In this document: piece by piece, positions 43,811 to 64,000 of the stretch
How positions within the stretch are numbered: the stretch's first letter is position 1
Layout: every line of letters starts with the position of its first letter
NCBI GenBank assembly: GCA_028289425.1
Contig: JANQPL010000008.1
Coordinates: 30,613 to 94,612, forward strand
Direction: 5' to 3'
Length of the DNA stretch: 64,000 nucleotides
DNA from: Alphaproteobacteria bacterium
GTDB taxonomy: Bacteria; Pseudomonadota; Alphaproteobacteria; JANQMY01
Notes under the pieces: generated by a model
What the model saw: only the letters and a program-made list of their open reading frames with translations
The model's database searches: none
What the model was told of the DNA's origin: nothing
Made by a program: the position numbers and the translations under genes

Positions 43811-44251
43811 TCAGGACGAGCCGCCGGAACCGATCACAAATTCGCTGCGGTCGTAAATATAGTCTTCCGCCTCATAGGGTCGATCGCAGACCACCATCAA
43901 TTCCGAATCCGGCCCAACAAAGGTTTGCGACGCGAATATACGCGGCGGCATACAAAGGTAATCGCCCGCCGCAAGTGTCACATTCTTCGTTTGATGACCG
44001 TCCAGCATCTCGACCTGGACTTGGCCGCGTGAGCAAACAAGGAACTGAGAGCACACTTTGTGCGCATGGCCGCCGCGCGCCGTTCTAGCCGGCACCTGGT
44101 TGATCCAGAAAATGCGCTTGGGAACGAATGGCAAATGGTCGGCGAACTCAAGCACGCCCAGAACGCCGCGCTCGTCCAGGTGAAGGGGCAATGTGCCGGT
44201 CAGCACCTTTCCAATGGGGCTCTCGTTCGATCGACCGCTAGAGGGCTTCAT
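43811..44251 (-). CDS. WxcM/FdtA-like cupin, probable dTDP-4-keto-6-deoxyhexose 3,4-ketoisomerase
   Basis: 146 aa. HLDERGVLGVLEF..LPFVPKRIFWINQVPARTARGGHAHK, a cupin with the RGGHAH motif. ATGA overlap with the upstream aminotransferase. Confidence 0.78.
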   Translation of the reverse strand: MKPSSGRSNESPIGKVLTGTLPLHLDERGVLGVLEFADHLPFVPKRIFWINQVPARTARGGHAHKVCSQFLVCSRGQVQVEMLDGHQTKNVTLAAGDYLCMPPRIFASQTFVGPDSELMVVCDRPYEAEDYIYDRSEFVIGSGGSS

Positions 44252-45372
44252 TGCTTGTAAAACGCGTGCACCGACTCGACGACGTACTCTATTTGCGTTT
44301 CGGTCATGCCATAAAAGAGAGGCAATGACAGGATCTCCAAACCGATCTGCTCGGTGGCAGTGAGCGGTTTTGGAATTCGAGCCGACCCCGCCAAACCGGG
44401 CTGCGCGTGAATTGGATAGGGATAGTGGCGGCCCGTCTGGACGCCGCGGTCCATTAGGAAGCTCTCCAGTTGATCGCGCTGGCCGGTGCGCGCGACGTAT
44501 AAGTGATAGACCGGTTGCGTCCGGTCATCCGTGGCAGGCAGATTCAACGGCAGGTCCGCAAAAGCGTGGCTGTAACGGTCGGCTATTTGGCGGCGGCGGT
44601 CGTTCCATTCGTTCAGAAGCGGAAGTTTGACCGACAACATGGCCGCCTGAATTTCGTCCATGCGCGCGCAGCGCCCAAACTCGAGTTCTGCGAACTGAGG
44701 TTTTGTCCAACCATAAGTACGCAGTCGCTTAACCCGTTCCGATAGATCTTTGCTGGACGTAACGACGCATCCGGCATCGCCGATCGCGCCAAGGTTTTTT
44801 GTGGGATAGAAACTGAAGCAGCCAAGGTCACCGAACGTACCCACAGAGCGGCCATCGTATTTCGCCCCGGCCGCCTGTGCGCAGTCTTCGACCAGCGCGA
44901 TGCGCTGCGAACGGCAGACCGACAATAGCGCCTCTAGATTGGCGGGCCGTCCATAAAGATGAACCGCGATTGCGGCCTTCACCGCCGGACCCATCGCCTG
45001 CTCCACCGCTCGGGGATCCAGATTGAAAGACTCATCTTCGACGTCCACCAGGACCGGCGTCGCGCCAACATTCCGGACCGCGGCTGCCGTCGGTCCCGCC
45101 GTGTGAGAGGGCAGGATAACTTCATCGCCCGGCCCGATTCCTAACGCCAGCAGAGCCAGTGTCAGCGCATCGGTGCCCGACGCCGTGCCGATGGCGAAAG
45201 CGCTGCCCACATATTCGGCAAAGGCCCGCTCGAACGCTTCAACTTCAGTACCCAGAATATATCGTCCGCTGCCGATCACCTTAGAGCATGCGCCATTGAG
45301 GGCATCCGCGATGGCGCGGTTGTCAGCAAGCGGGTCAGCGAGCGGAACCTGCAAGAGCGTGTCTTCAGACAT
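44248..45372 (-). CDS. DegT/DnrJ/EryC1-family sugar aminotransferase (FdtB-like)
   Basis: 374 aa. GRYILGTEVEAFERAFAEYVG, GTASGTDALTLAL, PLP-Lys motif SFYPTKNLGAIGDAG. Confidence 0.9.
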   Translation of the reverse strand: MSEDTLLQVPLADPLADNRAIADALNGACSKVIGSGRYILGTEVEAFERAFAEYVGSAFAIGTASGTDALTLALLALGIGPGDEVILPSHTAGPTAAAVRNVGATPVLVDVEDESFNLDPRAVEQAMGPAVKAAIAVHLYGRPANLEALLSVCRSQRIALVEDCAQAAGAKYDGRSVGTFGDLGCFSFYPTKNLGAIGDAGCVVTSSKDLSERVKRLRTYGWTKPQFAELEFGRCARMDEIQAAMLSVKLPLLNEWNDRRRQIADRYSHAFADLPLNLPATDDRTQPVYHLYVARTGQRDQLESFLMDRGVQTGRHYPYPIHAQPGLAGSARIPKPLTATEQIGLEILSLPLFYGMTETQIEYVVESVHAFYKQ

Positions 45373-45426
45373 TAGATGTGAGGCGGATATGTGCTTGAGA
45401 ACAGCAGACGCGGCGACGGCATTCCG

Positions 45427-46311
45427 CTAACTGACGGACTCAAGTAGGTCGAACAGATATGCGCCATATTCGCTGTTCTTTTGTTTTTCGGCGCCGCGCT
45501 TCACGTCTTCCGTCGTGATCCAATTTTTCGATAACGCAATTTCCTCCAAACACGCGATCTGCAGACCTTGCCGGCGTTGAATGGTGGCAACAAAGTTTGC
45601 CGCATCGAGCATGGCCGAAGTGCTGCCCGAATCGAACCAAGCAAACCCGCGTCCCAATTCTTCGACATTGAGCTCGCCCAACTGCATATAGGAGCGGTTT
45701 AGATCGGTGATTTCCAGCTCACCGCGAGACGACGGTTGAAGCGTTTTGGCCATTTCGATGACGCGCTGGTCGTAGAAGTACAGGCCCACCACCGCCTGGT
45801 TCGATTTGGGTTTTGTAGGCTTTTCTTCCAAGGAAATGGCGCGCCCTTTTTCGTCGAACTCCACCACCCCAAATTGGCTGGGATTGTGAACCGGATAGCT
45901 GAAAACCGTCGCACCCGATTGACGTGCCGCCGCGCAGGCAAGGTGGTCAGAGAAGCCTTCGCCGTAGCAAATATTGTCGCCCAAGACCAGCGCACTTAAG
46001 TGGTCGCCAATGAATCGCTCGCCGATGATAAAGGCATCGGCCAAGCCCCTGGGATGATCTTGAACCGCATAGTCGAAACGAAGGCCGAATGCCGACCCAT
46101 CGCCCAGCAAGTTTTGAAAACTGGGCATGTCCCGCGGCGTGGTAATGATCAGAATATCCCGAATGTTGGCCAACATCAGCACCGAGATGGGATAATAGAT
46201 CATCGGTTTGTCGAACACCGGCAGGAGTTGCTTGCTGATGGCATGCGTTACCGGTGACAGGCGTGTCCCCGCGCCGCCGGCGAGAATAATGCCGCGCCGT
46301 TCCATGCTCAT
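45427..46311 (-). CDS. rfbA: Glucose-1-phosphate thymidylyltransferase
   Basis: [67 protein letters not shown] before the ATG at 46311. The track ORF extends to 46359. Confidence 0.93.
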
Positions 46312-46393
46312 GAACCGCCTCCCGGAGGCTTGGCGCCAAGCAGTGGTTTCGAAATCCACTTCATCGATCTGATAAGCCTAATGTCGTTTTTCC

Positions 46394-47218
46394 TCAACGG
46401 CCTAAGGCGCTGGAAAGGCGCCGCATGGCCCCCCGCCGTTTATCGCGTATCCATATGGCCGCGCTTCCCAAGGGGCCGCTAATGTCGTCAATGAGCCCAC
46501 GGCGCTTTTTGGCGATGTAGGAATGGGTGACCGCACAAAGTTCTTCTTTGGTATAGCCTCGTTCAGAAAGCTTTGTGTACAAATCATCGGGAACATCGTC
46601 GAGTGGTTCCATCGCCAAATCGTTGCGCAGCACGACCATGTTGGGAATCTTACGACATACCTCGACATATGTCCCGGCCGGCACCTGATTCATATGCGCA
46701 GGATTCATCATGTAGTTGACATGGCCTTCGATCTTGTCCCGAACGAACGCCTCTTCATCCTGAGAACGGAAAAACTGGATGATGTCATCCTTCGATTTCA
46801 AAAGATGTATCCACGGATAGTCTGCAAACACATCGCCCTTGTGGTGTCCATATCTCGAATTCCAAAGTGGCGCGGCGATGCAATAGATGAAACCGCCGGG
46901 GCGCGTCACCCGCTCAAATTCCTGAAATGCCCGCTCGATGTTCGGAATATGTTCCATCGTGGCGAAGCAATAGACCAGATCGAAGTGTTCCGACGGCAAA
47001 GACATCTCTTCCGCCGATTCAATGTGATACTGGACGTTCGGCGCAGAATAATCCGCACCCGTCCGTTCAATAACGTCCAGCCCGTGAACTTCTCGAGCGC
47101 CCGCCTCCACAAAGTACCGTAGATCCTTGCCCGTATTGCAGCCCACTACCAATACACGCGCCCCTTCCATTTTGAGGAGATCGGCTGCCCTGTTTGCGTG
47201 GACTTGATTGTGGTTCAT
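46394..47218 (-). CDS. Class-I SAM-dependent methyltransferase (MT1)
   Basis: 274 aa. ARVLVVGCNTGKDLRYFVEAGAREVHGLD ... FDLVYCFATMEHIPNIERAFQEFERVTRPGGFI. Inserted between rfbA and rfbB. Confidence 0.8.
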   Translation of the reverse strand: MNHNQVHANRAADLLKMEGARVLVVGCNTGKDLRYFVEAGAREVHGLDVIERTGADYSAPNVQYHIESAEEMSLPSEHFDLVYCFATMEHIPNIERAFQEFERVTRPGGFIYCIAAPLWNSRYGHHKGDVFADYPWIHLLKSKDDIIQFFRSQDEEAFVRDKIEGHVNYMMNPAHMNQVPAGTYVEVCRKIPNMVVLRNDLAMEPLDDVPDDLYTKLSERGYTKEELCAVTHSYIAKKRRGLIDDISGPLGSAAIWIRDKRRGAMRRLSSALGR

Positions 47219-47276: not shown

Positions 47277-48320
47277 TTAGCCGGTTCCGATGCGCTTTAG
47301 GTCGTAGCCCTTCGCGGCGATGCGCTTCGTCCAATCCCTATTGTCAAGATACCAAGCGACCGTTGTCCGAAGGCCATCGGCGAAACTGGTCGTGGGCGTC
47401 CAGCCAAACCGGTCGCCCACCAGCGCGTTTGACATAGCGTACCGCATATCGTGTCCGGGCCGGTCTTTCACATAAGTAATGGCATCAGAGTACGTATCGT
47501 GTGCCGGCGCGAGCTCATCCAACAGACCGCACAGCTCGGTGACCGTATCGATGTTCTTGCGCTCATCACCGCCAGAGAAATTGTACACGCCCCCGTCTTC
47601 CCCAGACTTCACCACCCGTTCAAGGCCCATTGCCAAATCGTCCACATAGAGCCAATCCCGAATCTGTACGCCGCGGCCGTATACCGGCAACGGCTGACCG
47701 GCCAGGGCGCTTGAAATCATGTGCGGGATCAGCTTCTCCGGAAACTGCCTTGGTCCGTAGGTATTCGAGGCATGGACGACCGCCGTGGGCAGTCCATGGG
47801 TGACGCGGAAACTGCGGACGAGATGGTCGCCGGCGGCTTTGGAGGCCGCATAGGGGGAATTGGGCGCGTAGTTGCTTTGTTCCGTGAACAGACCATCCTC
47901 GATCGAACCATACACTTCGTCGGTCGACATTTGGACGAACAGGAATTTGCTCTGCTGATCGCTGGCAACGTTTCGCCAATACGCCAAACACTGAGCGAGC
48001 AGGGCGTAAACGGACATCACGTTTGTCTTGAGAAAAGGCTGTGCATCGTCGATCGAGCGATCTACGTGGCTTTCCGCCGCCAGGTTAAACACCACGTTCG
48101 GTTGATGCTCCGACAAAACCCTCTGAACAAGCGCGCCATCACCAATATCGCCGTGGACGAAAACATAATTGTCGGCCTTGGCAACGGACGAAACATTGGC
48201 CACATCACCGGCATAGGTGAGCGCGTCCAGGTTAACCACACGGTAGCCGCTGGCAACAAGACGCTCTACAAAATGCGATCCGATAAATCCGCACCCGCCG
48301 GTCAGCAGGATTGTTTTCAA
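47277..48320 (-). CDS. rfbB: dTDP-glucose 4,6-dehydratase
   Basis: 347 aa. KTILLTGGCGFIGSHFV, AAESHVDRS, YAASKAAGD (YxxxK). The TTG start overlaps the upstream stop (TTGA). Confidence 0.93.
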   Translation of the reverse strand: MKTILLTGGCGFIGSHFVERLVASGYRVVNLDALTYAGDVANVSSVAKADNYVFVHGDIGDGALVQRVLSEHQPNVVFNLAAESHVDRSIDDAQPFLKTNVMSVYALLAQCLAYWRNVASDQQSKFLFVQMSTDEVYGSIEDGLFTEQSNYAPNSPYAASKAAGDHLVRSFRVTHGLPTAVVHASNTYGPRQFPEKLIPHMISSALAGQPLPVYGRGVQIRDWLYVDDLAMGLERVVKSGEDGGVYNFSGGDERKNIDTVTELCGLLDELAPAHDTYSDAITYVKDRPGHDMRYAMSNALVGDRFGWTPTTSFADGLRTTVAWYLDNRDWTKRIAAKGYDLKRIGTG

Positions 48321-49702
48321 GCCGTTCTCCGAATGACCGCATCATCAGACCGGGTTTCCATATCCCCATCGGTCCCGCCCTTGCGCCAAAGTTCGACAGT
48401 CGGCCCCAAGACTTTCTTCAACGCGTCAAGCGAATGGTCGGCTGTATAATCGAGAAATGCCCCCGACTGCCGATCAAAATGCTTCAGCGCCTCCAAAGAT
48501 CGGCAAATGCCGGCGGTGTCGCCTTCTCTGACGGTTGCCCCAAGCTGATAGCGGCGCACGCGTTCGCCCATGAGATGGCGGTCACTCACTAAAATGGGGA
48601 TGTTGAAGTAGGCTGCTTTGGTCAGCACGTTGCTGGAGGCCGGGAAATCACGGTACACGGCGTAAATGACATCCGCCGCCTGTAAGACCGCGTTGTAGTC
48701 GCGCTCATCCTCGATGAATGACGGATGGAAGAGCACATTCTCGGCCGGGTCGGACATCGCTTGTCGGAGTGTCTCTGCCTGCCCGTCAAATTTCTCCAGA
48801 TAGGGCCGGCCGACGACGGCAAAAAAGAACTGAGACGGATCGGCATGCTTCATCACATTGAGTAATTCCAACGTGCCCTTGTGTGGCGCGATCGTACCGA
48901 TTTGCAAAACCACACATCTGCCGCGCGCCCGGTCACGGATGGTTGCAGCCAGGTCTAGGCTGTCGTCGGCAAGCTCCACATCCGCCACATCCGGGATCAG
49001 TGCAAAATCAAGCGCCGGTAGAAGGTCACGATAGGTGCCCAGGGTTTCCGGCACGAGAAACTTGGCGCCCCGCATGCGGGGGCTGAAAAAGTACTTCTCG
49101 GGCCCTGCCTGGCGAAGCCGGTCCGACTTGCGCGCATGGAACAGAATGCCCCCCCACGGCATATTCCAATTCCTTTCGAACTGCGCTAGATCGCGCCGAT
49201 CCTCGGCCATCACGTCGAGATAAAGAAAGAATGCGAGATCGCCGTCGAGCCCGGTCATTTTTTGGGCAAGGCCGACGCGCCTGGAAAAGTCCGCAAACGG
49301 CATTTTCCGAGCGGCCTGCCCCCGTTCGACCCCCAGTCTTCGGGCGAGCGCCGGCGTGTATTCCTTCAAGGCATCAACACCACGCCCGGCAACGCGGTGA
49401 GCTATTCCCGACATCCCTTCTTCCCCAAGCACCATCCGGGCCCGCTGCAGCATGGGAAGGTGCGCCCGCGACCCATGTTCCGGCAGACCGAGCTGTTTGT
49501 CTAAATGGACAGACGAAATGAAATGGAAGCTGGCGGCGTACCCCGGCGCCGTACGGGCCAAGTAATCTTTCGTTCCGCCGTCTTCTGGGGCAATCAGAAC
49601 CACCCGGTGTCCCAGTTCCAGCAACGCCCGGGAATAGAGGCGAGAATAGGCGTCTAAATGTCCGTGTCCGGAAATGGGGCTGATGAGATAGATGGTACTC
49701 AT
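48317..49702 (-). CDS. Putative GT-B glycosyltransferase
   Basis: 461 aa. The C-terminal half looks GT1/GT4-like: VLQIGTIAPHKGTLELLNVMK...FFAVVGRP...YNAVLQAADVIYAVY...SNVLTKAAYFNIPILVSD. The N-terminal half is not recognised. Confidence 0.6.
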   Translation of the reverse strand: MSTIYLISPISGHGHLDAYSRLYSRALLELGHRVVLIAPEDGGTKDYLARTAPGYAASFHFISSVHLDKQLGLPEHGSRAHLPMLQRARMVLGEEGMSGIAHRVAGRGVDALKEYTPALARRLGVERGQAARKMPFADFSRRVGLAQKMTGLDGDLAFFLYLDVMAEDRRDLAQFERNWNMPWGGILFHARKSDRLRQAGPEKYFFSPRMRGAKFLVPETLGTYRDLLPALDFALIPDVADVELADDSLDLAATIRDRARGRCVVLQIGTIAPHKGTLELLNVMKHADPSQFFFAVVGRPYLEKFDGQAETLRQAMSDPAENVLFHPSFIEDERDYNAVLQAADVIYAVYRDFPASSNVLTKAAYFNIPILVSDRHLMGERVRRYQLGATVREGDTAGICRSLEALKHFDRQSGAFLDYTADHSLDALKKVLGPTVELWRKGGTDGDMETRSDDAVIRRTA

Positions 49703-51161: not shown

Positions 51162-51271
51162 GCTGCTGTGAACTTGCTTACGCCAAATTGTTGCGCGTTC
51201 TAATAGTGAAGTTTTGAGATTTCTTGGAGAACCAGTCGGCAAGTGCGCGACGACGATTGCTTAGCACTGCG

Positions 51272-54091: not shown

Positions 54092-54111
54092 GTGCGCTAG
54101 AAATACGTATC

Positions 54112-56229: not shown

Positions 56230-56865
56230 TCACAACTGCACCACATGAACTTGATCCTTATCACTCTGCACTTGATGGATGTCGACGGATTTACATCCGA
56301 TGTGATGTAGAAGTAGGTCGTAGTGGTCGGTCGAGAACGACCGACGTAGGTAAGGTTCCTGCTTCTGCCCGGGACCAACGTCCAACATTCGCAACACGGC
56401 CGTGTCGTGTCGGTCGGCGGGGGGTTCGAAGAAGCGGATCATGATGCGGGGCGCCATGTTTCGCGCCGCCGCCAGCGAGGCACCAGGCGATTCCAAGGTC
56501 TCAAGCACGTGGGAAAACAACACAATGTCCGCCGGCTCCCCCTGCAGGTCGGGATCTTGGATGTCCCCTTCCACAAAAACCGTGTCGTCACTGCCCGCAT
56601 AGCGCGCCCGCGCCGCATTGAGCAGTGAGGTGGAAAAATCCCACCCGGTATATTTGAGCGTCAATCCCTGGTCCCGGAAAAACTGGCACAGATGACCGTT
56701 GCCACACCCGAAATCCGCCAAGTGAAAGCGCGTATCGCCGAACAATTCCTTCAGTATACTGCCCATCAACAATTTCGACCGCTCCGACGGGTGGCCATAA
56801 CCGTCGAGATAGATCTTGGCGGTATCGTCATCGAAGGCGGACCAGCTGTTCTTTGCAATTGACAT
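56230..56865 (-). CDS. Class-I SAM-dependent methyltransferase (MT6)
   Basis: 211 aa. FHLADFGCGNGHLCQFF ... ADIVLFSHVLETLESP. Confidence 0.8.
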   Translation of the reverse strand: MSIAKNSWSAFDDDTAKIYLDGYGHPSERSKLLMGSILKELFGDTRFHLADFGCGNGHLCQFFRDQGLTLKYTGWDFSTSLLNAARARYAGSDDTVFVEGDIQDPDLQGEPADIVLFSHVLETLESPGASLAAARNMAPRIMIRFFEPPADRHDTAVLRMLDVGPGQKQEPYLRRSFSTDHYDLLLHHIGCKSVDIHQVQSDKDQVHVVQL

Positions 56866-57825: not shown

Positions 57826-59378
57826 GAGACGTACGCCCCTTTGTTTTCGAAGTTTCGCGAATGCATAAGGGCCGCCGCTTCGCCGGAATTTTCGATGACG
57901 GCAGTGATATTGCGCGTCGCCTGGGCTACGCCGGCCGAAAAGAATCCGGATACCGCAGGTCCATTCTCATTGCGAATGCGTTGCGCTTCGCCACCGACAA
58001 GGCGCTCCAACGCCTCTCGCGCCGCATCATAATCGTGCACCTCTACACCCAATCCCATTTGCTCAAGATCCGGATGGTGGCGCGCGATCCCCGTGACATT
58101 GACGATCAACGGTACGGCACCACGCACCACCGCCTCTATCAGTGTCGTCGAAAATATGGCCACTGCCACCAAAGATTCATCCAGCACGTCCGCAAGCGGC
58201 CGCTCGGTCGCCGGGCTCATCTCCACATTCGACAAGGATGCCAGGTGGGCCCGTTCTTCGTCGCGAATAGGAATTGCCGGGTGTTCCCGCACCAAAATCT
58301 TCCGGTCCGAAAATCGCTCCGCGGTCCAGGACACCAGGCGTAACATGTTCTGCCAAGCTTCTTCCGTGATCAAAACGGAGCCGTGCTGCAAAAAGAATGA
58401 AATGGCCGACTTTTCGGAACGGTCAGCACCGCCACCCGGTCCGATCACGTGATTTCCCGTCACGAAAAATGCCTGGGCCGGATTGTGTAGCTCAAGCATC
58501 CGTGCGAATTGCGCCCCCCAAACGCAGAATGCGTCGAAACGCATCTCCCGAAACCCGTTGTGAACAACCGGCGACCATCCCTGCTGTATGCAGACGGTTC
58601 GAATGCCGAGCGACCGTGCGGCCAGATTGACAATTTCGTCGATCGGATGCGTGCCTTCGGCCATCACGATCGTGGAGATGTCGTGACGCGACAACACATC
58701 CCGCATCACGTCGAATTGTGCCGCAAGGCTTGGCCATTCAGTCAATTGCCGACGCACCGTTCGCGTCAGCGTCCGGGCATCATCGAAATCATAGGTGACG
58801 ACCTGCCTGCCGTTTTCGGCAAGCCGGTCTTTGAGCGGAGATTTGGCCGCGGCAATCCACAGTGCCGGCGCAGAAAGCTGGCGTTCGATCGGGCTCAGGT
58901 AGTCGGCAAACCGTCCCGTAATCGCAAGGAAGGCAACCCGTCCCTTCACGGAGGGCTTCTGACTCGCAGACGGTTTAGTCGTTCCGGTACCGCTCCAATC
59001 GACAACGGAAGCGATATTTCGCCTGAGCGATTTCCTAAGACGTCCGGACCAACCGGTCCGGTCCCCCGTCATGTAAGGCAATAACATTGTCGCCTTTGGT
59101 GAAAGCGAGGTTCCTTCATCGGCTGCCGGTCGCGCGCCGGTCTCCATATGTTTCCGACAAACCTCTCTGAAAGCGCCGTCATTGACCAATCCGAAATAAA
59201 GGTCGATTGCTATGGCCCGCCCGAAATCCGCACCGCGATAGGACAGCCCGCCGATACTCTCTTTTCGTTTGTCCGAAACGTATCGTTCGACGGCATCGAT
59301 CAGCCGCGCCTGATAAGCGGCGGCTGATGGATCGACACATCCATCGGTCGACGGGTCAGTTGAGACGGCGCTCTGCAT
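57822..59378 (-). CDS. Unassigned 518-aa protein, possible GT-B transferase using a CMP-activated sugar (TagF / KpsS / sialyltransferase-like HP motif)
   Basis: C-terminal half: ISTIVMAEGTHPIDEIVNLAARSLGIRTVCIQQGW ... KILVREHPAIP ... VAVAIFSTTLIEAVVRGAVPLIV. Assignment is by motif resemblance and context only. Confidence 0.4.
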   Translation of the reverse strand: MQSAVSTDPSTDGCVDPSAAAYQARLIDAVERYVSDKRKESIGGLSYRGADFGRAIAIDLYFGLVNDGAFREVCRKHMETGARPAADEGTSLSPKATMLLPYMTGDRTGWSGRLRKSLRRNIASVVDWSGTGTTKPSASQKPSVKGRVAFLAITGRFADYLSPIERQLSAPALWIAAAKSPLKDRLAENGRQVVTYDFDDARTLTRTVRRQLTEWPSLAAQFDVMRDVLSRHDISTIVMAEGTHPIDEIVNLAARSLGIRTVCIQQGWSPVVHNGFREMRFDAFCVWGAQFARMLELHNPAQAFFVTGNHVIGPGGGADRSEKSAISFFLQHGSVLITEEAWQNMLRLVSWTAERFSDRKILVREHPAIPIRDEERAHLASLSNVEMSPATERPLADVLDESLVAVAIFSTTLIEAVVRGAVPLIVNVTGIARHHPDLEQMGLGVEVHDYDAAREALERLVGGEAQRIRNENGPAVSGFFSAGVAQATRNITAVIENSGEAAALMHSRNFENKGAYVS

Positions 59379-60336
59379 ACAGATCTTTTTCGACCATCTC
59401 TTCGATCATATCCTGAAACGGCTTTCCCGATGACCAACCTACTTGCCGATGTATCCGGCCGGCATCGCCGCATAACGGTACGGCCTCAACCGGGCGATAA
59501 AACCTCTTGTCTTGGCCAACACATTGTTCGGGATCGAGTTTCAAGGCATTGCACGCAATGGTGACCAAATCCCGCACGGAATGCATCCGTCCGGTGGCGA
59601 TGACGAAATCGCCGGGTTGGTCATGGTCAAGAATGCGCTGCATCGCTTCCACATAGTCCGGCGCGTAGCCCCAATCCCGTCTGGCTTCAAGGTTTCCAAG
59701 CGCAATATTGCTTTGTAGGCCCAACGACACCCGTGCCAGCCCCCGCGTCACCTTGCGGGACAGAAAATAGGGCTCCCGCCGCGGAGATTCATGGTTATAG
59801 AGAATACCGGTACAGGCAAAGCTGCCGAATTTCGTACGATGGCGCTCCACCAAATCGGTCGCCGCAAGTTTTGCGAAGCCATACATGGATCTTGGCTGGC
59901 GCGCCGTTTGCTCGTCTTGAGGCGCCTTACTGGGTGCTCCGAAAATCTCGGATGTTCCGGCGAAAAACAACCGTGCCCGCGCCCGGTCTTTTATTGCCTC
60001 CAACAACGCCTTTGTGCTGCCGAAGATGGTTTTGAACACGCCGGCATTGCCGCCAACGTTACTGTCCACCCGTGTTGGCCCTCCCAGATGGTAGACCAGA
60101 TCCGGCTCTACTTTTCGGCACACGCCGAAAACAGCGTCACTGTCGGACAAGTCCACATCATAACGGTGAACCCGCGAATCGGAAAACAAGGCGCGCACAT
60201 AAGACGGCAACACTTGATCCGCGGACGGTTGACTTGGCCGCACGATGCAATGAATTTCGTGGTCATTGGCCAACAAAGACTCGGCCAGGTAGGACCCGTC
60301 CTGCCCCGTTACGCCAGTCAACAAAACGCGCGCCAT
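59356..60336 (-). CDS. GDP-mannose 4,6-dehydratase-family SDR
   Basis: 326 aa. VLLTGVTGQDGSYLAE, YGFAKLAA (YxxxK), ILYNHESPRR, RRDWGYAPDYVEAM. Confidence 0.85.
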   Translation of the reverse strand: MARVLLTGVTGQDGSYLAESLLANDHEIHCIVRPSQPSADQVLPSYVRALFSDSRVHRYDVDLSDSDAVFGVCRKVEPDLVYHLGGPTRVDSNVGGNAGVFKTIFGSTKALLEAIKDRARARLFFAGTSEIFGAPSKAPQDEQTARQPRSMYGFAKLAATDLVERHRTKFGSFACTGILYNHESPRREPYFLSRKVTRGLARVSLGLQSNIALGNLEARRDWGYAPDYVEAMQRILDHDQPGDFVIATGRMHSVRDLVTIACNALKLDPEQCVGQDKRFYRPVEAVPLCGDAGRIHRQVGWSSGKPFQDMIEEMVEKDLYAERRLN

Positions 60337-60345: not shown

Positions 60346-62595
60346 CTAGAGCAGTCCTTCCAGCCGATCCAATGCAAGCCAAAACCCGTCCCCGCCATTC
60401 TTGTGGCCTTGCCAGATTTCCGGAATGAATGGGACATTTGGGCAAAGCTCGGCGAGCCGGCGCCCCAGCGCTTCAAAATCGATCTCCCCTTCGCCGATTT
60501 GCAACCCCTCGCTGTCCACGCCCGCGGCATCCACAATATGAAGATGACCGGTCACCGGGCCAAGAATGTCCACATAATCCTCAAAGCGCCGGCCCCGATG
60601 GTTGGCCGCCAGTTTGGAGTGGGAGACGTCGAAACAAATCTTCAGGCCGCTTGACCGCGAAAACTCAGCCGTGTCCTCAGGTTCCACAAACAGATTGCAG
60701 TAAAGCTGCCCGCCCAAATACCAAGGAAAGGGCGGCAGGGTTTGGGGCAAGATGTCGACACCCTCCGTATCCACGTGCGACAGGGAATCGGAAACGCGAT
60801 CGTAAAGCTCCGGCAACCGCTCGGCGGCCACCGGCTCATCCCGCGACATACCGCCTAGGCTCGCAATTAGCGGGACCTTCGATACGTTGGGAAACCACTT
60901 TTTGAGCCGTCGCGTGACCTCGATCGTACGTTGTAAATGTGCAATCGAAACTTCTCTATACTGACGGTCGTCCGCGGCCAGATTCAAAATATGGTCGTTT
61001 TCGAACAGATCCGGGCTGTGTACCACCAACCCCGTTGGCATCTCCGCATCGAAAAACTTGCCGGGGTCGGCTTCCAGATCTTTGTAGGAGAAATGAAACT
61101 CCACAAAGTCCATACTCAAGCCTTGATGAATCGCTTTCCAATCGTGATAACGCACCGGCACGCCCCAAGGGCGGTTGAATTTGTAGTTTCGTGCTTTTGA
61201 CACGTTTGTAAGAAGGTCGGTCGCAAAGAAGAAATCCCCTTTCGCGATATCCCTGTTGGCCGGCCGGCCCACCAATTCCCGAATGCGATTGGGCTGAAGG
61301 CCCGTTCCGGGGCTCTGCACCGCAATCATCGACTGGTCGATCATCCGACCCGACTTGATATCCTCGGCAGCGACAAGGCTTTTCGCGAGGACTTCCCGGT
61401 TCATCTGTTCGCCTACAGATGGTTCGCGCGGAGTTGCCCCGCCCAGCGCTTCCTCTACATTTCGAATGGCGGCCACCATTTCCGTGAACTGGTCTGGCTC
61501 TAGGCTTACCTTGTGATCGTTGCCCACCATGTTGCGATCTAAGGTGATGTGTTTTTCGACGATCTTCGCGCCCCGAGCCACCGCGGCAATGGGCACCGCA
61601 TATCCCCGCTCGTGCCCGGAATAGCCGACAATGGCCCCCGTTACCCGAGACAAGCGATCCAAATACCGCAGATGGACGTCCTTAAAGGGTGTGGGATATG
61701 TGGAATTGCAATGCAGAAGGGCAAACTGGCCGCCGGCGCGCCGCAGCTCAGTCACCGTTTCCAGGATTTCCGTCTCGTTAGACATGCCGGTCGACACGAT
61801 GAGAGGTTTGCCGGTTGCCGTCACGGCGCGGATCAGCTGATGGTTTGTCATATCGGCCGAAGCGATTTTGTAGGCCGGCACCCCCCATGCGGCCAAGAAG
61901 GCCACGCTTCTCAGATCCCAGGGCGTGCAAAGCGGCGTGATGCCACGGGTTTGTGCGTAGTCCAACACCTCGCCCATTTGCTCGGTGCTGAAATTTGCCC
62001 GCTGCAGTACCTCTAACGTGTACTGAGTACCTAGATCCGCGGCTTCGTGGTCGGGCCGCGAACTGCCCTTGTAAAGCGAACTCAAATCACGCAACTGGAA
62101 CTTGACGCTATCTGCTTGGGCTTCGACGGCACAATCGATCAATTCCTTGGCAACCGACACGCTGCCATTATGGTTCACGCCGATTTCCGCAATGATATAA
62201 CAGGGCTCGTTCTCGCCAATCCTGCGGCCGTCGATTTCGAAGCCACCCTTGCTCCGTTCCAACGCCACGCCGGTGACGCGGCCTTCCGCGTCCACTAGCG
62301 GCACGAACGATACGCGTTCGCTGAAGATGTCGGCGAGCGTTTCCATGTTCGATGCATCCGGCGCGGTCGTCACATCGCGATTGCACGCCACGACCACCGA
62401 TTCGCTCACATCGATTTCTTCGACCTTGGATATCCACCGCCGAAAATCGCCGTCCGTCAGCGCGCCATCCAGCCGCCCGTTATTGTCGAGGCAAAGGACG
62501 AAGCCACTTTTGTTTCTCGAGATCTGACCCAGCGCCTCCGCGATCGACGCAGTGCTATTGATCAAATACTTCTTGATATCCCGTTCGATGATCAA
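60346..62595 (-). CDS. Fusion protein: CBS pair + NeuB-type nonulosonate (sialic-acid-like) synthase + SAF domain + xylose-isomerase-like TIM barrel
   Basis: 749 aa. Residues 1-115 are CBS-like. PCYIIAEIGVNHNGS...LIVSTGMS...LHCNSTYPTP...GYSGHERG is NeuB. Residues ~400-460 are SAF (IAVQSPGTGLQPNRIRELVGRPANRDIAKGDFF). Residues ~470-749 are TIM barrel (GHLHIVDAAGVDSEGLQIGEGEIDFEALGRRL...PFIPEIW). The TTG start overlaps the neuA stop (TTGA). Confidence 0.88.
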   Translation of the reverse strand: MIIERDIKKYLINSTASIAEALGQISRNKSGFVLCLDNNGRLDGALTDGDFRRWISKVEEIDVSESVVVACNRDVTTAPDASNMETLADIFSERVSFVPLVDAEGRVTGVALERSKGGFEIDGRRIGENEPCYIIAEIGVNHNGSVSVAKELIDCAVEAQADSVKFQLRDLSSLYKGSSRPDHEAADLGTQYTLEVLQRANFSTEQMGEVLDYAQTRGITPLCTPWDLRSVAFLAAWGVPAYKIASADMTNHQLIRAVTATGKPLIVSTGMSNETEILETVTELRRAGGQFALLHCNSTYPTPFKDVHLRYLDRLSRVTGAIVGYSGHERGYAVPIAAVARGAKIVEKHITLDRNMVGNDHKVSLEPDQFTEMVAAIRNVEEALGGATPREPSVGEQMNREVLAKSLVAAEDIKSGRMIDQSMIAVQSPGTGLQPNRIRELVGRPANRDIAKGDFFFATDLLTNVSKARNYKFNRPWGVPVRYHDWKAIHQGLSMDFVEFHFSYKDLEADPGKFFDAEMPTGLVVHSPDLFENDHILNLAADDRQYREVSIAHLQRTIEVTRRLKKWFPNVSKVPLIASLGGMSRDEPVAAERLPELYDRVSDSLSHVDTEGVDILPQTLPPFPWYLGGQLYCNLFVEPEDTAEFSRSSGLKICFDVSHSKLAANHRGRRFEDYVDILGPVTGHLHIVDAAGVDSEGLQIGEGEIDFEALGRRLAELCPNVPFIPEIWQGHKNGGDGFWLALDRLEGLL

Positions 62596-63317
62596 TGGGC
62601 CCTCATCAAGGTCATGGCCGCTTCCGCCAATGCCAGATCGTCCGGCGTGTCAATGTCTACACTTTCGAGAGCGGACATTTCGTAAATCACGATCTTCCCG
62701 CCAACCCGGCAGTTTTCCCCACGCAGAAGCGTGCAACGGGTCAAGTAAATCGACCCGTTTTCTTCAAACAACCGATCTTCGTCGGCCACGTCCTGTCGGC
62801 GCGGGCGATTTCTGAAATCATAATGGGCGCGTGCGTCGCCCGGCCTGTTCCACAAGAACGGATGAATTTCCTGCGCGGAAACCACACTGTCGGCGTCGTG
62901 CTTTCGCCGCAGATCAATGGCCGCATCGATGGCACCGGGCTTGCGGATCGGGCATGTGGGCTGGAGCAACAGGATATCATCCGCTTCGTATCCGTCCTGC
63001 GCCAATGTTTCAACCGCGTGCACCATTGCGGACTCGGTCGTGGCGGTATCGCCCGCAAGCTCCGCCGGACGCATGAACGGCACATCGGCGCCGAATTCTT
63101 TCGCCGCTTCCGCGATTTTCGGACTGTCTGTCGAAACGATCGTGCGGTCCACTTGACGGCTGGCAAGCGACTGCTCGATGGACCAAGCAATCAGCGGTTT
63201 GCCGCCCAGCGGCGCCAGGTTTTTGTCGGGGATGGATTTAGACCCGCCGCGCGCCGGAATAATGGCAAGGATCGTCACGTCAGGTGCCGCCCTTGGCCAA
63301 TTCCAATTGACCCGCAT
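62592..63317 (-). CDS. neuA: CMP-nonulosonate (N-acylneuraminate) cytidylyltransferase
   Basis: ILAIIPARGGSKSIPDKNLAPLGGKPLIAWSIEQS ... LLLQPTCPIR. The ATG at 63317 overlaps wzt by 38 nt. A GTG at 63278 (VTILAIIPARGG) is an equally good or better start. Confidence 0.9.
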   Translation of the reverse strand: MRVNWNWPRAAPDVTILAIIPARGGSKSIPDKNLAPLGGKPLIAWSIEQSLASRQVDRTIVSTDSPKIAEAAKEFGADVPFMRPAELAGDTATTESAMVHAVETLAQDGYEADDILLLQPTCPIRKPGAIDAAIDLRRKHDADSVVSAQEIHPFLWNRPGDARAHYDFRNRPRRQDVADEDRLFEENGSIYLTRCTLLRGENCRVGGKIVIYEMSALESVDIDTPDDLALAEAAMTLMRAH

Positions 63318-64000
63318 CCGTATCTTGGTCCATCTGCGCGGTTGTCCAAGATCCCGGAAAGATAATGTGGCCGACCCGTTCTTTCTTGTAACTGCGGAAG
63401 GCGGTGTTTTCAGTCAGCTCCTCGATGGCAAATTGCAGAGCGCTGGGCACTTCGATCAGTATATCCGTCAGTGTACCAATCAAGACGGAAATGGAATAGC
63501 TGCCCCCTTTCAGGAAGCGCGCAGGAATGCGCATTTGCGCGTGATACCGGCCTGCTTTTCGATTCGCGATGGGCTCCACATGGCCATCCGTGTCGAACGA
63601 CGTAAAAACCTCGATCATGTTGCGCGACACGACCATAACCGACTGCATCGTGTCGATGTCTTCATGCAGTTCATATTCCATATTGACGACAATTTCGTCT
63701 TTGAGGTCGAAGATCTGTTCGTCCCGGCCGTCGCTATGTGTGGTCCAAACGCGGTTTATGGAGATATTGTTCTTGTGCCATCCGCGCCCATCCCCATGGA
63801 TAAGATCTTCCGAAATGAGCTTGGCGTAAGACCCGACCACGTCGCCCACTTCGCCGGCATCAAGGATTTCGCCTTTGTCCAACAGGATCGCCGATGTGCA
63901 AAGTTCGCTAATGGATCCGATATTGTGACTTACAAACAGGACCGTGCGACCGCTTTTCATCAGATCTCTGATTTTTTCCATGCTTTTCTTACGAAAGGCG
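63280..64000 (-). CDS. Polysaccharide ABC-exporter ATP-binding protein (Wzt/TagH type), 5' part outside window, with C-terminal extra domain
   Basis: The reading frame stays open to base 64000 (...AFRKKSMEKIRDLMKSGRTVLFVSHNIGSISELCTSAILLDKGEI = end of the ABC ATPase with H-loop). About 170 further residues follow (VWTTHSDGRDEQIFDLKDEIVVNMEYELHEDIDT...RFLKGGSYSISVLIG), consistent with a Wzt-type beta-sandwich C-domain. Confidence 0.82.
   Translation of the reverse strand, partial: AFRKKSMEKIRDLMKSGRTVLFVSHNIGSISELCTSAILLDKGEILDAGEVGDVVGSYAKLISEDLIHGDGRGWHKNNISINRVWTTHSDGRDEQIFDLKDEIVVNMEYELHEDIDTMQSVMVVSRNMIEVFTSFDTDGHVEPIANRKAGRYHAQMRIPARFLKGGSYSISVLIGTLTDILIEVPSALQFAIEELTENTAFRSYKKERVGHIIFPGSWTTAQMDQDTDAGQLELAKGGT

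Follow-up and report, generated by a model that had tools for sequence, protein, structure and literature searches.

A methyltransferase-rich operon in an alphaproteobacterial genome probably directs an ABC-transporter-dependent surface glycan with a nonulosonic-acid branch

We analyzed a 64,000-nucleotide stretch of DNA (the window) from an uncultured phototrophic alphaproteobacterium and found that positions 43811–64000 are filled by 19 intact, closely packed ORFs, all on the minus strand (Table 1). This block is probably a single long operon for an ABC-transporter-dependent surface polysaccharide, most likely an LPS O-polysaccharide, assembled, capped and methylated as proposed below. In our best reading, the product is a polymer built from a dTDP-3-amino-3,6-dideoxyhexose, with a modified nonulosonic acid as its cap or as a decoration and with many O- and/or N-methyl groups. 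The locus represents a conserved surface-glycan cluster type that extends to Rhizobium, and it is the most methyltransferase (MT)-rich member among 41 related loci, having 7 MTs within ±10 kb where the related loci have a median of 2 and reach 5 at most. Chance alone would also give far fewer than seven MTs in 19 genes.

The genes are packed as in an operon. Four neighboring pairs (FdtA/DegT, RmlB/GTa, MT7/Unk518 and NeuB/NeuA) share 4-nt stop/start overlaps, two further overlaps are longer than 4 nt, and the remaining intergenic gaps are at most 114 nt; taking the later ATG that the gene caller chose for MT4 raises this maximum to 170 nt. A search for internal terminators in the block gave no signal above chance. 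The proteins were searched against Pfam and NCBIfam profiles and scored against the family cut-offs. These results uphold the original prediction, made from the sequence alone, with respect to both the unbroken 19-gene block with its stop-start overlaps and the domain assignments. An extended copy of the locus (L001) reaches further upstream, where a Wzm carrying ABC2_membrane precedes a full-length Wzt of 426 aa (ABC_tran plus Wzt_C). Wzm, together with a Wzt that has a carbohydrate-binding domain, supports the predicted dependence on an ABC transporter. L001 also adds, upstream of the window, a NusG paralogue, which is an operon regulator, as well as divergent GT4, MT (the eighth, MT8) and O-acyltransferase genes. 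No Wzx, Wzy or KpsCSED was found among the annotated genes of the window and L001.

Table 1. The 19 genes of the block, in order of transcription. L numbers denote related loci; bit scores are followed by the family cut-off where one applies.
Gene	Positions	Strand	Assignment	Profile matches	Related sequences
Wzt (C-terminal part)	63280..64000	-	ABC ATPase end + Wzt_C; gene continues beyond the window	Wzt_C (Pfam) 31.8 vs 30.4; ATPase part, NCBIfam matches to TagH/Wzt ATPases	
NeuA	62592..63317	-	NeuA/PseF-like CMP-ulosonic-acid synthetase, 241 aa	PF02348 (CTP_transf_3) 88.8; TIGR03584 PseF 141.9, under 205.7	With Unk518 in 25/40 loci
NeuB fusion	60346..62595	-	CBS-NeuB-SAF-AP_endonuc_2 fusion, 749 aa	PF03102 266.9; PF01261 80.8; SAF; CBS; under equivalog cut-offs TIGR03569 (327 vs 400) and PseI (249 vs 340)	Fusion kept in related loci, 36–70% identity; PDB: SiaC/PseI, E 1e-51
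GmdL	59356..60336	-	Gmd-like NDP-sugar 4,6-dehydratase, 326 aa	PF16363 279.9; TIGR01472 250 vs 415	PDB: GDP-mannose dehydratases, E 1e-64
Unk518	57822..59378	-	GT-B fold; family without Pfam domain	No Pfam match	
MT7	56887..57825	-	Class I MT, 312 aa, Ala/Pro-rich N-terminus	Methyltransf_25 42.7 vs 27	One distant homologue in 40 loci
MT6	56230..56865	-	Core MT, 211 aa; canonical motif I LADFGCGNG	Methyltransf_11 46.7	
MT5	55342..56181	-	Divergent MT-fold protein, 279 aa; no GxGxG	Methyltransf_23 26.4 vs 27, E 7e-6	L002, L005, L024, 54–59%
GTb	54112..55293	-	Core GT-B (GT4-like), retaining-type, 393 aa	Glyco_trans_1_4 29.7 vs 27	>350 homologues, mostly without Pfam match
MT4	53081..54091	-	MT, 336 aa (later ATG: 286 aa); atypical motif I VLHIAPEPE	Methyltransf_11 45.7, C-terminal half of profile only	Full-length in L006, L015, L041, L084, 39–55%
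MT3	52196..52966	-	Core MT, 256 aa; canonical motif I	Methyltransf_23 33.4 vs 27	L002, L008, L012, L014, L024, L107, 44–62%
PhyH	51272..52168	-	PhyH-family Fe(II)/2-oxoglutarate dioxygenase, 298 aa	PF05721 45.9 vs 22	In 23/40 Unk518 loci
MT2	49716..51242	-	508 aa (481 aa if ATG 51161 is the start); NanM-type core of a putative sugar O-methyltransferase; canonical motif I ILEIGAGWG; helical extensions, N-terminal about 150 aa, C-terminal about 200 aa	TIGR04371 72.2 vs 44; weak TPR match	L002, L003, L009, L107, L109, 38–56%
GTa	48317..49702	-	GT4-like, 461 aa	Glyco_trans_1_4 25.4, E 1.8e-5, under cut-off	L002–L006, L008, 40–49%
RmlB	47277..48320	-	dTDP-glucose 4,6-dehydratase	TIGR01181 403.7 vs 365.1	
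MT1	46394..47218	-	Class I MT, 274 aa, between rmlA and rmlB	Methyltransf_11 64.1, full profile	
RmlA	45427..46359	-	Glucose-1-phosphate thymidylyltransferase	TIGR01207 456.1 vs 360.65	
DegT	44248..45372	-	DegT-family PLP aminotransferase	PF01041 346	
FdtA	43811..44251	-	FdtA/QdtA-type dTDP-4-keto-6-deoxyhexose 3,4-ketoisomerase; last gene of the block	PF05523 110.7 vs 23	

Both predicted sugar branches were recovered. RmlA, RmlB, FdtA and DegT form a complete route to a dTDP-3-amino-3,6-dideoxyhexose; DegT reaches no NCBIfam equivalog cut-off, and we infer that it is an FdtB/QdtB-type 3-aminotransferase. No N-acyltransferase for the amino sugar is present in the block. The nonulosonic-acid branch is supported by NeuB and NeuA, and, judged by its domain content, its pathway is non-canonical. 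The 749-aa fusion combines a nonulosonic acid synthase with a putative sugar isomerase/epimerase domain (a xylose-isomerase-like TIM barrel). In the Pfam and NCBIfam searches, the block contained no equivalent of NeuC, PseG or LegG, the enzymes that free the sugar for NeuB, and it holds no aminotransferase or acetyltransferase dedicated to this pathway. Given these absences and the sub-cut-off equivalog scores of NeuB, Neu5Ac, Pse and Leg are all improbable identities for the sugar. GmdL stays in the conserved head of the cluster even in loci with an additional canonical Gmd/Rmd pair. PhyH is a candidate sugar hydroxylase and a member of the core, and no sequence relatives of it were found in the PDB.

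Which enzyme transfers the nonulosonic acid? The candidate CMP-nonulosonate glycosyltransferase is Unk518, whose family comprises 384 clusters at E ≤ 1e-30 and has the invariant motifs EG, QQGW, R-x-HP and ST-x3-E. At the sequence level, its motifs match those of GT4 enzymes and of the GT99 transferase WbbB, and a fusion to a TPR-GT41 transferase occurs in one member of the family. Furthermore, the AF2 model (pLDDT 86) has a helical N-terminal domain of 120 aa with no counterpart in epimerases. Unk518 is not a member of GT99 or GT107: its profile match to the LQ/HP region of WbbB was weak and insignificant (E about 1), and it does not conserve the catalytic nucleophile, the Asp of the QxxxD motif.

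Could Unk518 instead be the missing NDP-sugar hydrolase or 2-epimerase, filling the role of NeuC, LegG or PseG by supplying NeuB with free hexose, while another transferase adds the sugar? Foldseek searches with the model returned GT-B epimerases and GT1 enzymes, the best matches being UDP-GlcNAc 2-epimerases, among them the hydrolysing meningococcal enzyme 6vlc. P0213, a member of the Unk518 family, shows a weak Epimerase_2 match in Pfam (E 4.5e-4), the block offers no other candidate for the hydrolase step, and a nucleotide-sugar dehydratase, GmdL, directly adjoins Unk518. On this reading, the conserved set of NeuA, NeuB, GmdL and Unk518 would suffice to make a CMP-nonulosonate from a GDP-sugar. 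On the other hand, the transferase-like motifs, the GT41 fusion and the N-terminal domain argue against this function, as does the nature of the other two transferases. GTa and GTb are both GT4-like, and the GT4 family is not known to use CMP-sugars. GTb (AF2 pLDDT 88.7; best Foldseek matches MshA, BshA, PimA and glycogen synthase) is unlikely to be a CMP-sugar transferase, since the enzymes it resembles are retaining GT4 transferases with UDP- or GDP-sugar donors. Moreover, the genes called in the 19 kb retrieved for L107 include three donor-sugar pathways but no glycosyltransferase candidates beyond GTb, Unk518 and a WecA-like initiating transferase. We consider a hydrolase or epimerase function unlikely and retain Unk518 as the candidate transferase.

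None of the seven predicted MT genes is frameshifted, and all seven match MT families. MT1, MT3, MT4, MT6 and MT7 pass a Pfam gathering score and MT2 passes an NCBIfam cut-off; the prediction is weaker for MT5, which falls just under its Pfam cut-off, and for MT4 and MT5 in that both lack the Gly-rich motif I. The eight MTs, MT8 included, are less than 33% identical in pairwise alignments of at least 50 residues and are thus not recent duplicates. Length-matched orthologues of MT2, MT3, MT4, MT5 and MT6 exist in other loci, whereas, in our sample of loci, MT7 is specific to the window.

From their conserved gene neighborhood, MT3 and MT7 look tied to the nonulosonic acid, and MT6 to Wzt and a transferase. 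Even in a Paracaedibacteraceae MAG and in Parcubacteria, MT3 is found with NeuB and PhyH, and MT3 and PhyH travel with NeuB and Unk518 across phyla. MT3, for which no sequence relatives were found in the PDB, is a candidate nonulosonic-acid O-methyltransferase, and MT7 weakly matches TIGR03587, the "pseudaminic acid biosynthesis-associated methylase" (48.5 vs 112). The order Wzt-MT6-GTb is found in L010, L020, L021, L022, L107 and L109, distant phyla included. MT1 is a candidate for N- or O-methylation of the dTDP-amino sugar; a PDB search detected no relation between it and TylM1 or DesVI, and weakly MT1-like MTs adjoin DegT and FdtA in L018 and L021. The prediction of a multiply methylated heteroglycan is partly supported, by both sugar branches, an exporter and a diverse set of genuine MTs, with the qualification that some MTs look tied to the nonulosonic acid and that probably not all act on the chain.

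It is also conceivable, but improbable, that the MT count overstates the chemistry: MT4, MT5 and perhaps MT7 would be inactive scaffolds, redundant or directed at non-glycan substrates, and methylation of the glycan would be sparse, limited for instance to a terminal cap plus one or two ring positions. The missing Gly-rich SAM loop of MT4 and MT5 might mean that they are inactive; MT5 passes no Pfam cut-off; and the G+C content of the MT3–MT5 stretch (48–52% vs 58%) suggests mosaic acquisition. However, all eight MTs are intact and mutually divergent, and a single, tightly packed glycan operon encloses every one of them. Full-length orthologues of MT4 and MT5 occur in several genomes at 39–59% identity, and the two genes are therefore under selection. 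Active MTs with atypical motif I variants are known.

The cluster is not a one-off. Its core comprises Wzm, Wzt, the 211-aa MT, a GT4-like transferase, an MT4/5-like MT, MT3, the PhyH dioxygenase, a NanM-like MT, NeuA, the NeuB-TIM fusion and a protein of ~500 aa without a Pfam domain. It recurs at 40–70% identity in Rhizobium leguminosarum, R. vallis, a Bradyrhizobiaceae MAG and many metagenome contigs, and parts of it reach candidate-phyla bacteria and one nanoarchaeote. The order Wzm-Wzt-NeuA-NeuB-GmdL-Unk518-MT6-GTb is constant and the genes downstream vary; sampling loci by GTb rather than Unk518 returned the same gene set with an adjoining WecA-like initiating transferase. The conserved part is the Wzm-Wzt-nonulosonic acid cassette-MT6-GTb with MT3, PhyH and MT2, and strain-specific decoration comprises MT7, one of MT4/MT5, MT1, MT8 and FdtA/DegT. 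Four MTs belong to the shared core and the window locus adds four more (MT8 counted). No characterized product for this cluster type was found in the literature or in plasmid records, nor was a published glycan structure for two carriers of a homologous cluster, Rhizobium GCA_019778225.1 and R. vallis CCBAU 65647. The original prediction, which did not recognize the combination as a described system, was correct in this respect, although its MT-rich block proved to have syntenic relatives.

Must the product be an LPS O-antigen? Related modules occur in lineages without LPS, namely Actinomycetota (Solirubrobacteraceae), Parcubacteria and Nanoarchaeota, and the module is therefore not bound to O-antigen as such. 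The window and L001 lack a WaaL ligase and an initiating transferase, and Wzm/Wzt-dependent S-layer glycans carrying methyl caps are known in Gram-positive bacteria. The product might thus be a lipid-anchored capsule-like polymer, or a polyprenol-assembled S-layer or protein-linked glycan exported by Wzm/Wzt. On the other hand, the host is an alphaproteobacterium, the nearest syntenic loci come from Rhizobium and Bradyrhizobiaceae, a WecA-like gene adjoins a distant version of the locus, and no KpsC/KpsS/KpsE/KpsD, oligosaccharyltransferase, flagellar or maf genes were found in or near the locus. We give such a product little credence and continue to favor the LPS O-polysaccharide.

In the proposed mechanism for this O-polysaccharide, the GT4-like enzymes would build the chain on undecaprenyl diphosphate in the cytoplasm. 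The nonulosonic acid, probably non-aminated and Kdn-like or 9-deoxy-Kdn-like with NeuB/Leg-type stereochemistry, would receive a hydroxyl group from PhyH and an O-methyl group from MT3, perhaps also from MT7. In other bacteria, methylated CMP-nonulosonates are found at the stage of the nucleotide sugar (bioRxiv 10.64898/2026.04.20.719630). Unk518 would transfer the acid, plausibly, by analogy and gene order, as a non-reducing-end cap, although the acid could equally be a residue of the repeat unit. The other MTs would O-methylate residues of the chain, with MT2 acting on a deoxyhexose, and MT1 would possibly N-methylate the 3-amino sugar. The Wzt binding domain would then read the cap and couple chain termination to export; such a domain recognizes a chemically modified chain terminus (PMC9445017). 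Attachment to lipid A-core is putative, as no WaaL or initiating transferase lies in the window.

How does this locus compare with known systems? The mycobacterial polymethylated polysaccharides MMP and MGLP, named in the original prediction, likewise involve many SAM-dependent sugar O-methyltransferases acting on one glycan, but they are cytoplasmic lipid-binding oligosaccharides and, to our knowledge, have no Wzm/Wzt exporter, nonulosonic acid or amino-deoxyhexose. They make a poor comparator. The searches showed no sequence kinship with them; the mycobacterial matches were confined to weak, sub-cut-off NCBIfam profiles of generic MTs. The canonical Neu5Ac, legionaminic and pseudaminic acid pathways share with the window a NeuB-family synthase, a CMP-transferase and pathway-associated MTs, and the Leg and Pse routes also share an NDP-sugar 4,6-dehydratase adjoining the synthase. 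In contrast, the window has a NeuB fused to CBS and TIM-barrel domains and scoring below the NeuB and PseI equivalog cut-offs, a dehydratase that is Gmd-like rather than LegB- or PseB-like, and no NeuC, LegG, PseG, pathway aminotransferase or N-acetyltransferase, and PhyH is a conserved partner in loci of its type. An O-methylated Kdn (5-O-methyl-Kdn) has reportedly been found in a Sinorhizobium fredii polysaccharide.

Closer comparators are the O-methylated, uniform-size rhizobial O-antigens and the methyl- or Kdo-capped ABC-dependent O-antigens. The O-antigens of Rhizobium etli CE3 and R. leguminosarum 3841 are, like the predicted window product, alphaproteobacterial and Wzm/Wzt-dependent. 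They are of uniform size, contain deoxyhexoses and amino sugars, carry several O-methyl groups with a methylated terminal residue, and are encoded by clusters with several MT genes. As far as we know, they lack nonulosonic acid, and their clusters lack NeuB/NeuA, PhyH and Unk518. The capped O-antigens of E. coli O8/O9a (WbdD methyl/phosphomethyl cap) and of Klebsiella O12 and Raoultella terrigena (WbbB beta-Kdo cap) share with the window locus Wzm/Wzt with Wzt_C, the absence of Wzx/Wzy, and MTs and a CMP-ulosonic-acid pathway directly after wzt. In these systems, the transporter recognizes the modified terminus (PMC9445017, PMC3482155). As in the WbbB systems, the window has a GT-B protein, Unk518; its HP region shows a weak alignment to that of WbbB GT99. 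Unlike E. coli O8/O9a, the window has no WbdD-type kinase-MT with a coiled coil, and unlike the Kdo-capped systems, its acid sugar would come from a NeuB-type synthase (nine carbons) rather than a Kdo synthase (eight). Compared with these capped O-antigens, the window locus has eight MTs instead of one, together with a PhyH dioxygenase.

The glycan block is a real, intact and unusually methyltransferase-rich variant of a conserved, uncharacterised cluster type. ORF calling placed 19 ORFs in the block (43811-64000), all on the minus strand and uninterrupted by any plus-strand gene; four of the junctions are 4-nt stop/start overlaps, two are longer overlaps, and the other gaps are short. Gene assignments were made with Pfam and NCBIfam models, and these returned for the 19 ORFs the same gene list as the original prediction had read from the sequence. 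The seven methyltransferase (MT)-like ORFs, MT1 to MT7, likewise proved to be members of real methyltransferase families and not remnants, as six of the seven scored above a curated cut-off and all seven are intact. MT1, MT3, MT4, MT6 and MT7 exceeded a Pfam cut-off and MT2 the NCBIfam cut-off of TIGR04371 (72 bits vs 44), whereas MT5 fell short of its Pfam cut-off by 0.6 bit (26.4 vs 27, E 7e-6). The glycine-rich, SAM-binding motif I is canonical in MT2, MT3 and MT6, variant in MT1, MT7 and the additional upstream methyltransferase MT8, and absent from MT4 and MT5. Start codons are ambiguous in MT2, MT3 and MT4, for which the longest ORFs encode 508, 256 and 336 aa and the gene caller, run on the second copy of the locus, gave 481, 250 and 286 aa; the methyltransferase domains are the same whichever start is taken.

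Features of the window and of related loci; block genes are numbered from the 3' end to the 5' end of the operon
Feature	Sequence	Coordinates	Strand	Content
Near-complete photosynthesis gene cluster (Pfam domain and gene order)	window	1-41400		bchZ/Y/X-like nitrogenase-type subunits, bchC-like ADH, crtF-like O-MT, crtD/I-like desaturases, crtB, bchD, ALA-synthase-like aminotransferase, puhE (DUF3623), acsF-like rubrerythrin, puhA, lhaA/PucC, bchM, bchL, bchH, bchB, bchN, bchF, B12-binding regulator, PpsR-like PAS-HTH protein, bchG, second PucC, bchP, TspO
Genes between photosynthesis cluster and glycan block	window	41686-43762		cytochrome c (minus, 279 aa), zinc-type alcohol dehydrogenase (plus, 334 aa)
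Glycan block	window	43811-64000	minus	19 ORFs
Block genes 1-3	window		minus	FdtA-type 3,4-ketoisomerase, DegT aminotransferase, RmlA
Block genes 4-6	window		minus	MT1, RmlB, GTa (GT4-like)
Block genes 7-9	window		minus	MT2 (NanM-type putative sugar O-methyltransferase), PhyH dioxygenase, MT3
Block genes 10-12	window		minus	MT4, GTb (second GT4-like), MT5
Block genes 13-15	window		minus	MT6, MT7, Unk518 (518 aa, no Pfam match)
Block genes 16-17	window		minus	GmdL (Gmd-like dehydratase), NeuB-TIM (749-aa CBS-NeuB-SAF-TIM-barrel fusion)
Block genes 18-19	window		minus	NeuA-like CMP-transferase, C-terminal part of Wzt with Wzt_C
MT2 gene	window	49716-51242	minus	start codon ambiguous
MT3 gene	window	52196-52966	minus	start codon ambiguous
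MT4 gene	window	53081-54091	minus	start codon ambiguous
Low-G+C stretch	window	52196-56181		MT3, MT4, GTb, MT5
Flank upstream of the window end	L001	1-3852		NusG paralogue and 216-aa protein preceding wzm; divergent GT4 protein, MT8 and O-acyltransferase
HTH protein	L107	2039-2377		
FdtA and DegT homologues	L107	2428-5986		directly after Gmd/Rmd-like pair, not RmlA/RmlB
FdtA and DegT homologues	L109	429-6040		directly after Gmd/Rmd-like pair, not RmlA/RmlB

Is this gene combination peculiar to the window? The original prediction had not recognised it as a described system. A synteny comparison of relatives of Unk518, the protein that lacks a Pfam match, showed that it is not confined to the window: Rhizobium leguminosarum (GCA_019778225.1) and R. 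vallis CCBAU 65647 both carry the same cluster, as do a Bradyrhizobiaceae MAG and several metagenome contigs, with protein identities of 40–70%. These clusters share one fixed order, Wzm-Wzt-NeuA-NeuB fusion-GmdL-Unk518-MT6-GTb, followed by a variable set that includes MT5, MT3, PhyH, MT2, GTa and Rml genes or, alternatively, Gmd/Rmd, GT2 proteins, FdtA/DegT and other methyltransferases. GTb has more than 350 homologues and, when taken as the starting point, led to the same gene set in another order in the more distant loci L107, L108 and L109: a divergent WecA-like gene; NusG, an HTH protein, Rmd, Gmd, FdtA and DegT; Wzm, Wzt, MT6, GTb, an MT4/5-like methyltransferase and MT3; and finally PhyH, an MT2-like protein, NeuA, an SDR, NeuB-TIM and Unk518. 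The Unk518 family itself is small, with 43 proteins in a word-indexed search and 384 clusters at E<=1e-30 when 1.84 billion representatives were searched with a full profile. Among the 40 Unk518 loci of at least 15 kb, NeuA was present in 25, the NeuB fusion and PhyH in 23 each, Wzt, GTb and MT3 in 15 each, MT2 in 12 and MT6 in 11. A plasmid location was considered and dropped, as tblastn gave no match to Unk518 in 72,556 plasmid records.

The core set is present in lineages as far apart as Rhizobium and candidate-phyla bacteria, and a nanoarchaeote has parts of it. NeuA, NeuB, Unk518, PhyH and MT3 were found in a Paracaedibacteraceae MAG and in the nanoarchaeote, and Wzt-MT6-GTb in Solirubrobacteraceae and Parcubacteria. 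Five MAGs, of Parcubacteria/Paceibacterota (L014, L020, L022), Nanoarchaeota (L023) and Solirubrobacteraceae (L010), carry homologues of Unk518, NeuB(-TIM), NeuA, PhyH and MT3, with the Wzt-MT6-GTb trio in the bacterial ones. None of these organisms (ultra-small candidate-phyla bacteria, an archaeon and an actinobacterium) has LPS, and in them the module must therefore serve to decorate surface glycoconjugates of another kind.

Within this family, the window stands out by its methyltransferases. It has seven MT-like ORFs within ±10 kb of the Unk518 gene, whereas the other 40 loci have at most 5 (median 2), in a count that was made on all ORFs with a filter and that undercounts the other loci because the detector was seeded by the window's own methyltransferases; loci with precomputed Pfam annotation have 3–5 each. 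Four methyltransferases belong to the core (MT6, an MT4/5-like protein, MT3 and MT2), and the window's locus adds four more, namely MT1, MT7, whichever of MT4 and MT5 is not counted in the core, and MT8 upstream. The eight are mutually divergent (<33% identity over alignments of at least 50 residues), which points to eight specificities and not to recent duplication. From MT3 to MT5, G+C is 48–52% and GC3 51–53%, against about 58% elsewhere in the window; this composition suggests a mosaic origin, in which part of the cluster may have been acquired separately. Searches of PDB sequences returned nothing informative for MT2, MT3, PhyH or GTb and generic methyltransferases only for MT6. MT1 lies between rmlA and rmlB. 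From this position, it could be a TylM1/DesVI-type N,N-dimethyltransferase, an idea that we set aside because neither enzyme was among its PDB sequence matches at E<0.01.

The window holds only the C-terminal part of Wzt (Pfam, NCBIfam), with a Wzt_C carbohydrate-binding domain at residues 68-187 of the partial protein that scores 31.8 bits against a gathering score of 30.4. An exact-protein look-up recovered a second assembly of the locus, L001, which reaches further upstream and adds a 216-aa protein, a NusG paralogue (164 aa), Wzm and the full-length Wzt (426 aa). Directly upstream in L001, a 280-aa ABC2_membrane protein and a 426-aa ABC_tran protein are the two export subunits of the cluster. 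The NusG paralogue and the 216-aa protein, which is weakly similar to the HTH protein of L107, look like an operon-specific antitermination module. Divergent from the wzm side in L001 lie a GT4 protein, MT8 (310 aa) and a 699-aa Acyl_transf_3/SGNH O-acyltransferase, and the last of these may add O-acetyl groups to the glycan as well. The 19 ORFs and the L001 flank all have other assignments than Wzx or Wzy, and none belongs to a polytopic flippase or polymerase family; nor does the block or that flank have a Capsule_synth, Poly_export or Wzz-type domain (KpsC/KpsS/KpsE/KpsD). A WecA/WbaP initiation gene and a WaaL ligase for attachment to lipid A-core are found neither in the window nor in L001; in L107 and L108, the distant version of the cluster has a WecA-like gene beside it. 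At the other end, the alcohol dehydrogenase gene and fdtA converge, with 48 nt between the end of the former and the stop of the latter, and this gap showed no convincing terminator hairpin. The promoter/terminator scan gave counts at or below shuffled expectation and was uninformative, and a tRNA scan found no genes.

Which sugars would the cluster make? RmlA (TIGR01207, 456 bits vs 361) and RmlB (TIGR01181, 404 vs 365) passed their equivalog cut-offs. FdtA (PF05523, 110.7 bits) and the DegT aminotransferase (PF01041, 346 bits) are encoded by genes that overlap by 4 nt; DegT is assigned at the family level only, and its regiospecificity is inferred from the pairing with FdtA. Together, FdtA and DegT lead to dTDP-3-amino-3,6-dideoxyhexose by the established Fdt/Qdt pathway. 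No hexapeptide-repeat or formyltransferase domain of an FdtC/QdtC-type N-acetyl- or N-formyltransferase was found in the 19 ORFs or the L001 flank, and the amine may be free, methylated (by MT1) or acylated by an unlinked enzyme. The placement of FdtA and DegT in L107 and L109 (see table) hints at a GDP-linked 3-amino-3,6-dideoxyhexose route in those loci, which would be unusual.

The second sugar would be a nonulosonic acid. The synthase (PF03102, 266.9 bits) and the CMP-transferase (PF02348, 88.8 bits) are both under the NCBIfam equivalog cut-offs, and the NeuB domain is nearer to the NeuB/LegI model than to PseI (327 vs 249 bits, below both cut-offs). The dehydratase beside it belongs to the Gmd family (E 1e-64) and is not LegB- or PseB-like. 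In the block, there is no Epimerase_2 or PseG match for the NeuC, LegG or PseG step and no aminotransferase or N-acetyltransferase of a nonulosonic-acid pathway, the sole aminotransferase being paired with FdtA at the far end. The lack of the latter two enzymes argues against a Leg or Pse pathway and, with no NeuC/LegG/PseG equivalent, we infer a non-canonical and probably non-aminated nonulosonic acid, Kdn-like or 9-deoxy-Kdn-like. PhyH, an Fe(II)/2-oxoglutarate dioxygenase, would hydroxylate it and MT3 would O-methylate it, to judge from their conserved neighbourhood. A 2026 preprint (bioRxiv 10.64898/2026.04.20.719630) reports O-methyl groups already on CMP-activated nonulosonic acids. It also reports an unassigned ten-carbon ulosonic acid, linked to CMP, from a Rhodospirillales relative of the host, Magnetospirillum gryphiswaldense. 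The latter sugar carries N-acetyl groups and is described without its gene cluster; we treat it as a lead only and do not equate it with the sugar of the window. One way to make a ten-carbon ulosonic acid could be for a Gmd-like or heptose dehydratase to supply a NeuB-type synthase. Bradyrhizose, which photosynthetic Bradyrhizobium has in its O-antigen, was considered too; the published description of its cluster shows no NeuB, methyltransferase or Wzt, and the link was rejected.

Which protein would transfer the nonulosonic acid? The AF2 model of Unk518, built from 26 homologues (pLDDT 86, pTM 0.87), predicts a GT-B fold of two Rossmann-like domains behind a helical N-terminal domain of ~120 aa, and its best structural matches (Foldseek) are UDP-GlcNAc 2-epimerases and GT1 and GT28 transferases. 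Invariant in the 26 sequences are E241-G242, C-x-QQGW, R364-x-H366-P367 and S410-T411-x3-E415; the third is an HP motif in the C-terminal domain that aligns with ILVRAHP of the beta-Kdo transferase WbbB. A profile search of PDB sequences gave sub-significant matches only (best E 0.3–1.2), to the nucleotide-sugar-binding helix of the GT4 enzyme BshA (E 0.3) and to the LQ...ILVRAHP region of WbbB (E about 1). A conserved catalytic Asp (QxxxD or D/E-D/E-G) was not found: the position that aligns with the nucleophile region of WbbB shows no conservation, and of such a motif only E241-G242 is invariant. With neither significant similarity nor a conserved catalytic Asp, Unk518 is not classed with the sialyltransferases GT38/52/80 or the beta-Kdo transferases GT99/107, and it may represent a new family working similarly to CMP-sugar-dependent GT-B transferases. 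One family member matches Epimerase_2 weakly; another, P0255 (1426 aa), combines TPR repeats and a GT41 (O-GlcNAc-transferase-like) domain with a C-terminal Unk518 domain (residues 938-1408).

The competing transferases are the GT4-like proteins. GTb, modelled from 31 homologues (pLDDT 88.7), is structurally like the retaining GT4/GT5 enzymes MshA, BshA, PimA and glycogen synthase, and such proteins are unlikely to be CMP-sugar users. Among the called genes of L107, the transferase candidates are GTb, Unk518 and the WecA-like initiating transferase only. Both points favour Unk518, and we consider it the probable nonulosonic-acid transferase. Alternatively, Unk518 could be the missing NDP-sugar hydrolase or epimerase, since it has the general fold of the NeuC-type hydrolysing 2-epimerases; there is no significant sequence match to them, and we regard this role as rather unlikely.

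With Unk518 as the transferase, a polyprenol-linked chain would be built in the cytoplasm by the GT4-like enzymes and then methylated by SAM-dependent enzymes at ring hydroxyl positions and perhaps also at the 3-amino group. Unk518 would add the modified nonulosonic acid, the Wzt binding domain would read the chain terminus (the candidate cap being this acid or a methyl group), and Wzm/Wzt would export the chain. Chain-terminus recognition is set out as a general principle in PMC9445017 and PMC3482155. The constant order around wzt and the variable downstream genes are in keeping with a design in which cap and export stay the same and the repeat unit varies. The chain terminator could be Unk518 (with the nonulosonic acid), MT6 (with GTb) or MT2 (with its helical extensions); Pfam, NCBIfam and PDB searches of the block gave no protein of the WbdD or WbbB type. 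We put forward, as a tentative proposal that is possible rather than probable, that the core set (Wzm, Wzt with its binding domain, NeuA, NeuB-TIM, Unk518, PhyH, MT3, MT6, GTb and MT2) may form an undescribed chain-termination/export system. Its cap would be a hydroxylated, O-methylated non-amino nonulosonic acid, possibly a new sugar, which Unk518, as a new family of glycosyltransferases with about 384 clusters and no Pfam model, would add and the Wzt binding domain would read, and the window would hold its most methylated variant.

The rest of the window (the other 43 kb) is a photosynthesis gene cluster. For PuhA, its reaction-centre H subunit, no relative exceeds 65% identity, and the closest with a name are Rhodospirillaceae MAGs, Zavarzinia and Telmatospirillum (53–57%). 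The host is thus an uncultured phototrophic alphaproteobacterium of a poorly sampled lineage. Work on the system does not need this host, as R. leguminosarum and R. vallis are cultivable carriers.

If the proposal is correct, agriculturally relevant rhizobia and many uncultured lineages share a conserved surface-glycan system, in which a nonulosonic acid from an unusual NeuB-TIM fusion is modified by a dioxygenase and methyltransferases. Unk518 would be a good candidate for a new CMP-sugar transferase family, and the extreme methylation would make the cell surface unusually hydrophobic and alter recognition by phages, hosts and antibodies. In the enterobacterial models, Kdo and methyl phosphate are the export-coupling caps; with this cluster, one could test directly if a nine-carbon acid sugar is able to serve as such a cap.

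How does the cluster compare with known systems? Literature searches found no description of the gene set or its product. As the defining features are missing, the window encodes neither a Leg/Pse/Neu pathway, nor a GT99/GT107 enzyme, nor a Kps capsule system. The mycobacterial polymethylated polysaccharides, with which the original prediction had compared it, are not a close analogue. In its chemistry, the product would resemble the O-methylated, uniform-size O-antigens of rhizobia such as R. etli CE3, and in its mode of working the cluster would resemble the capped ABC-transporter-dependent O-antigen systems of E. coli O9a and Klebsiella O12.
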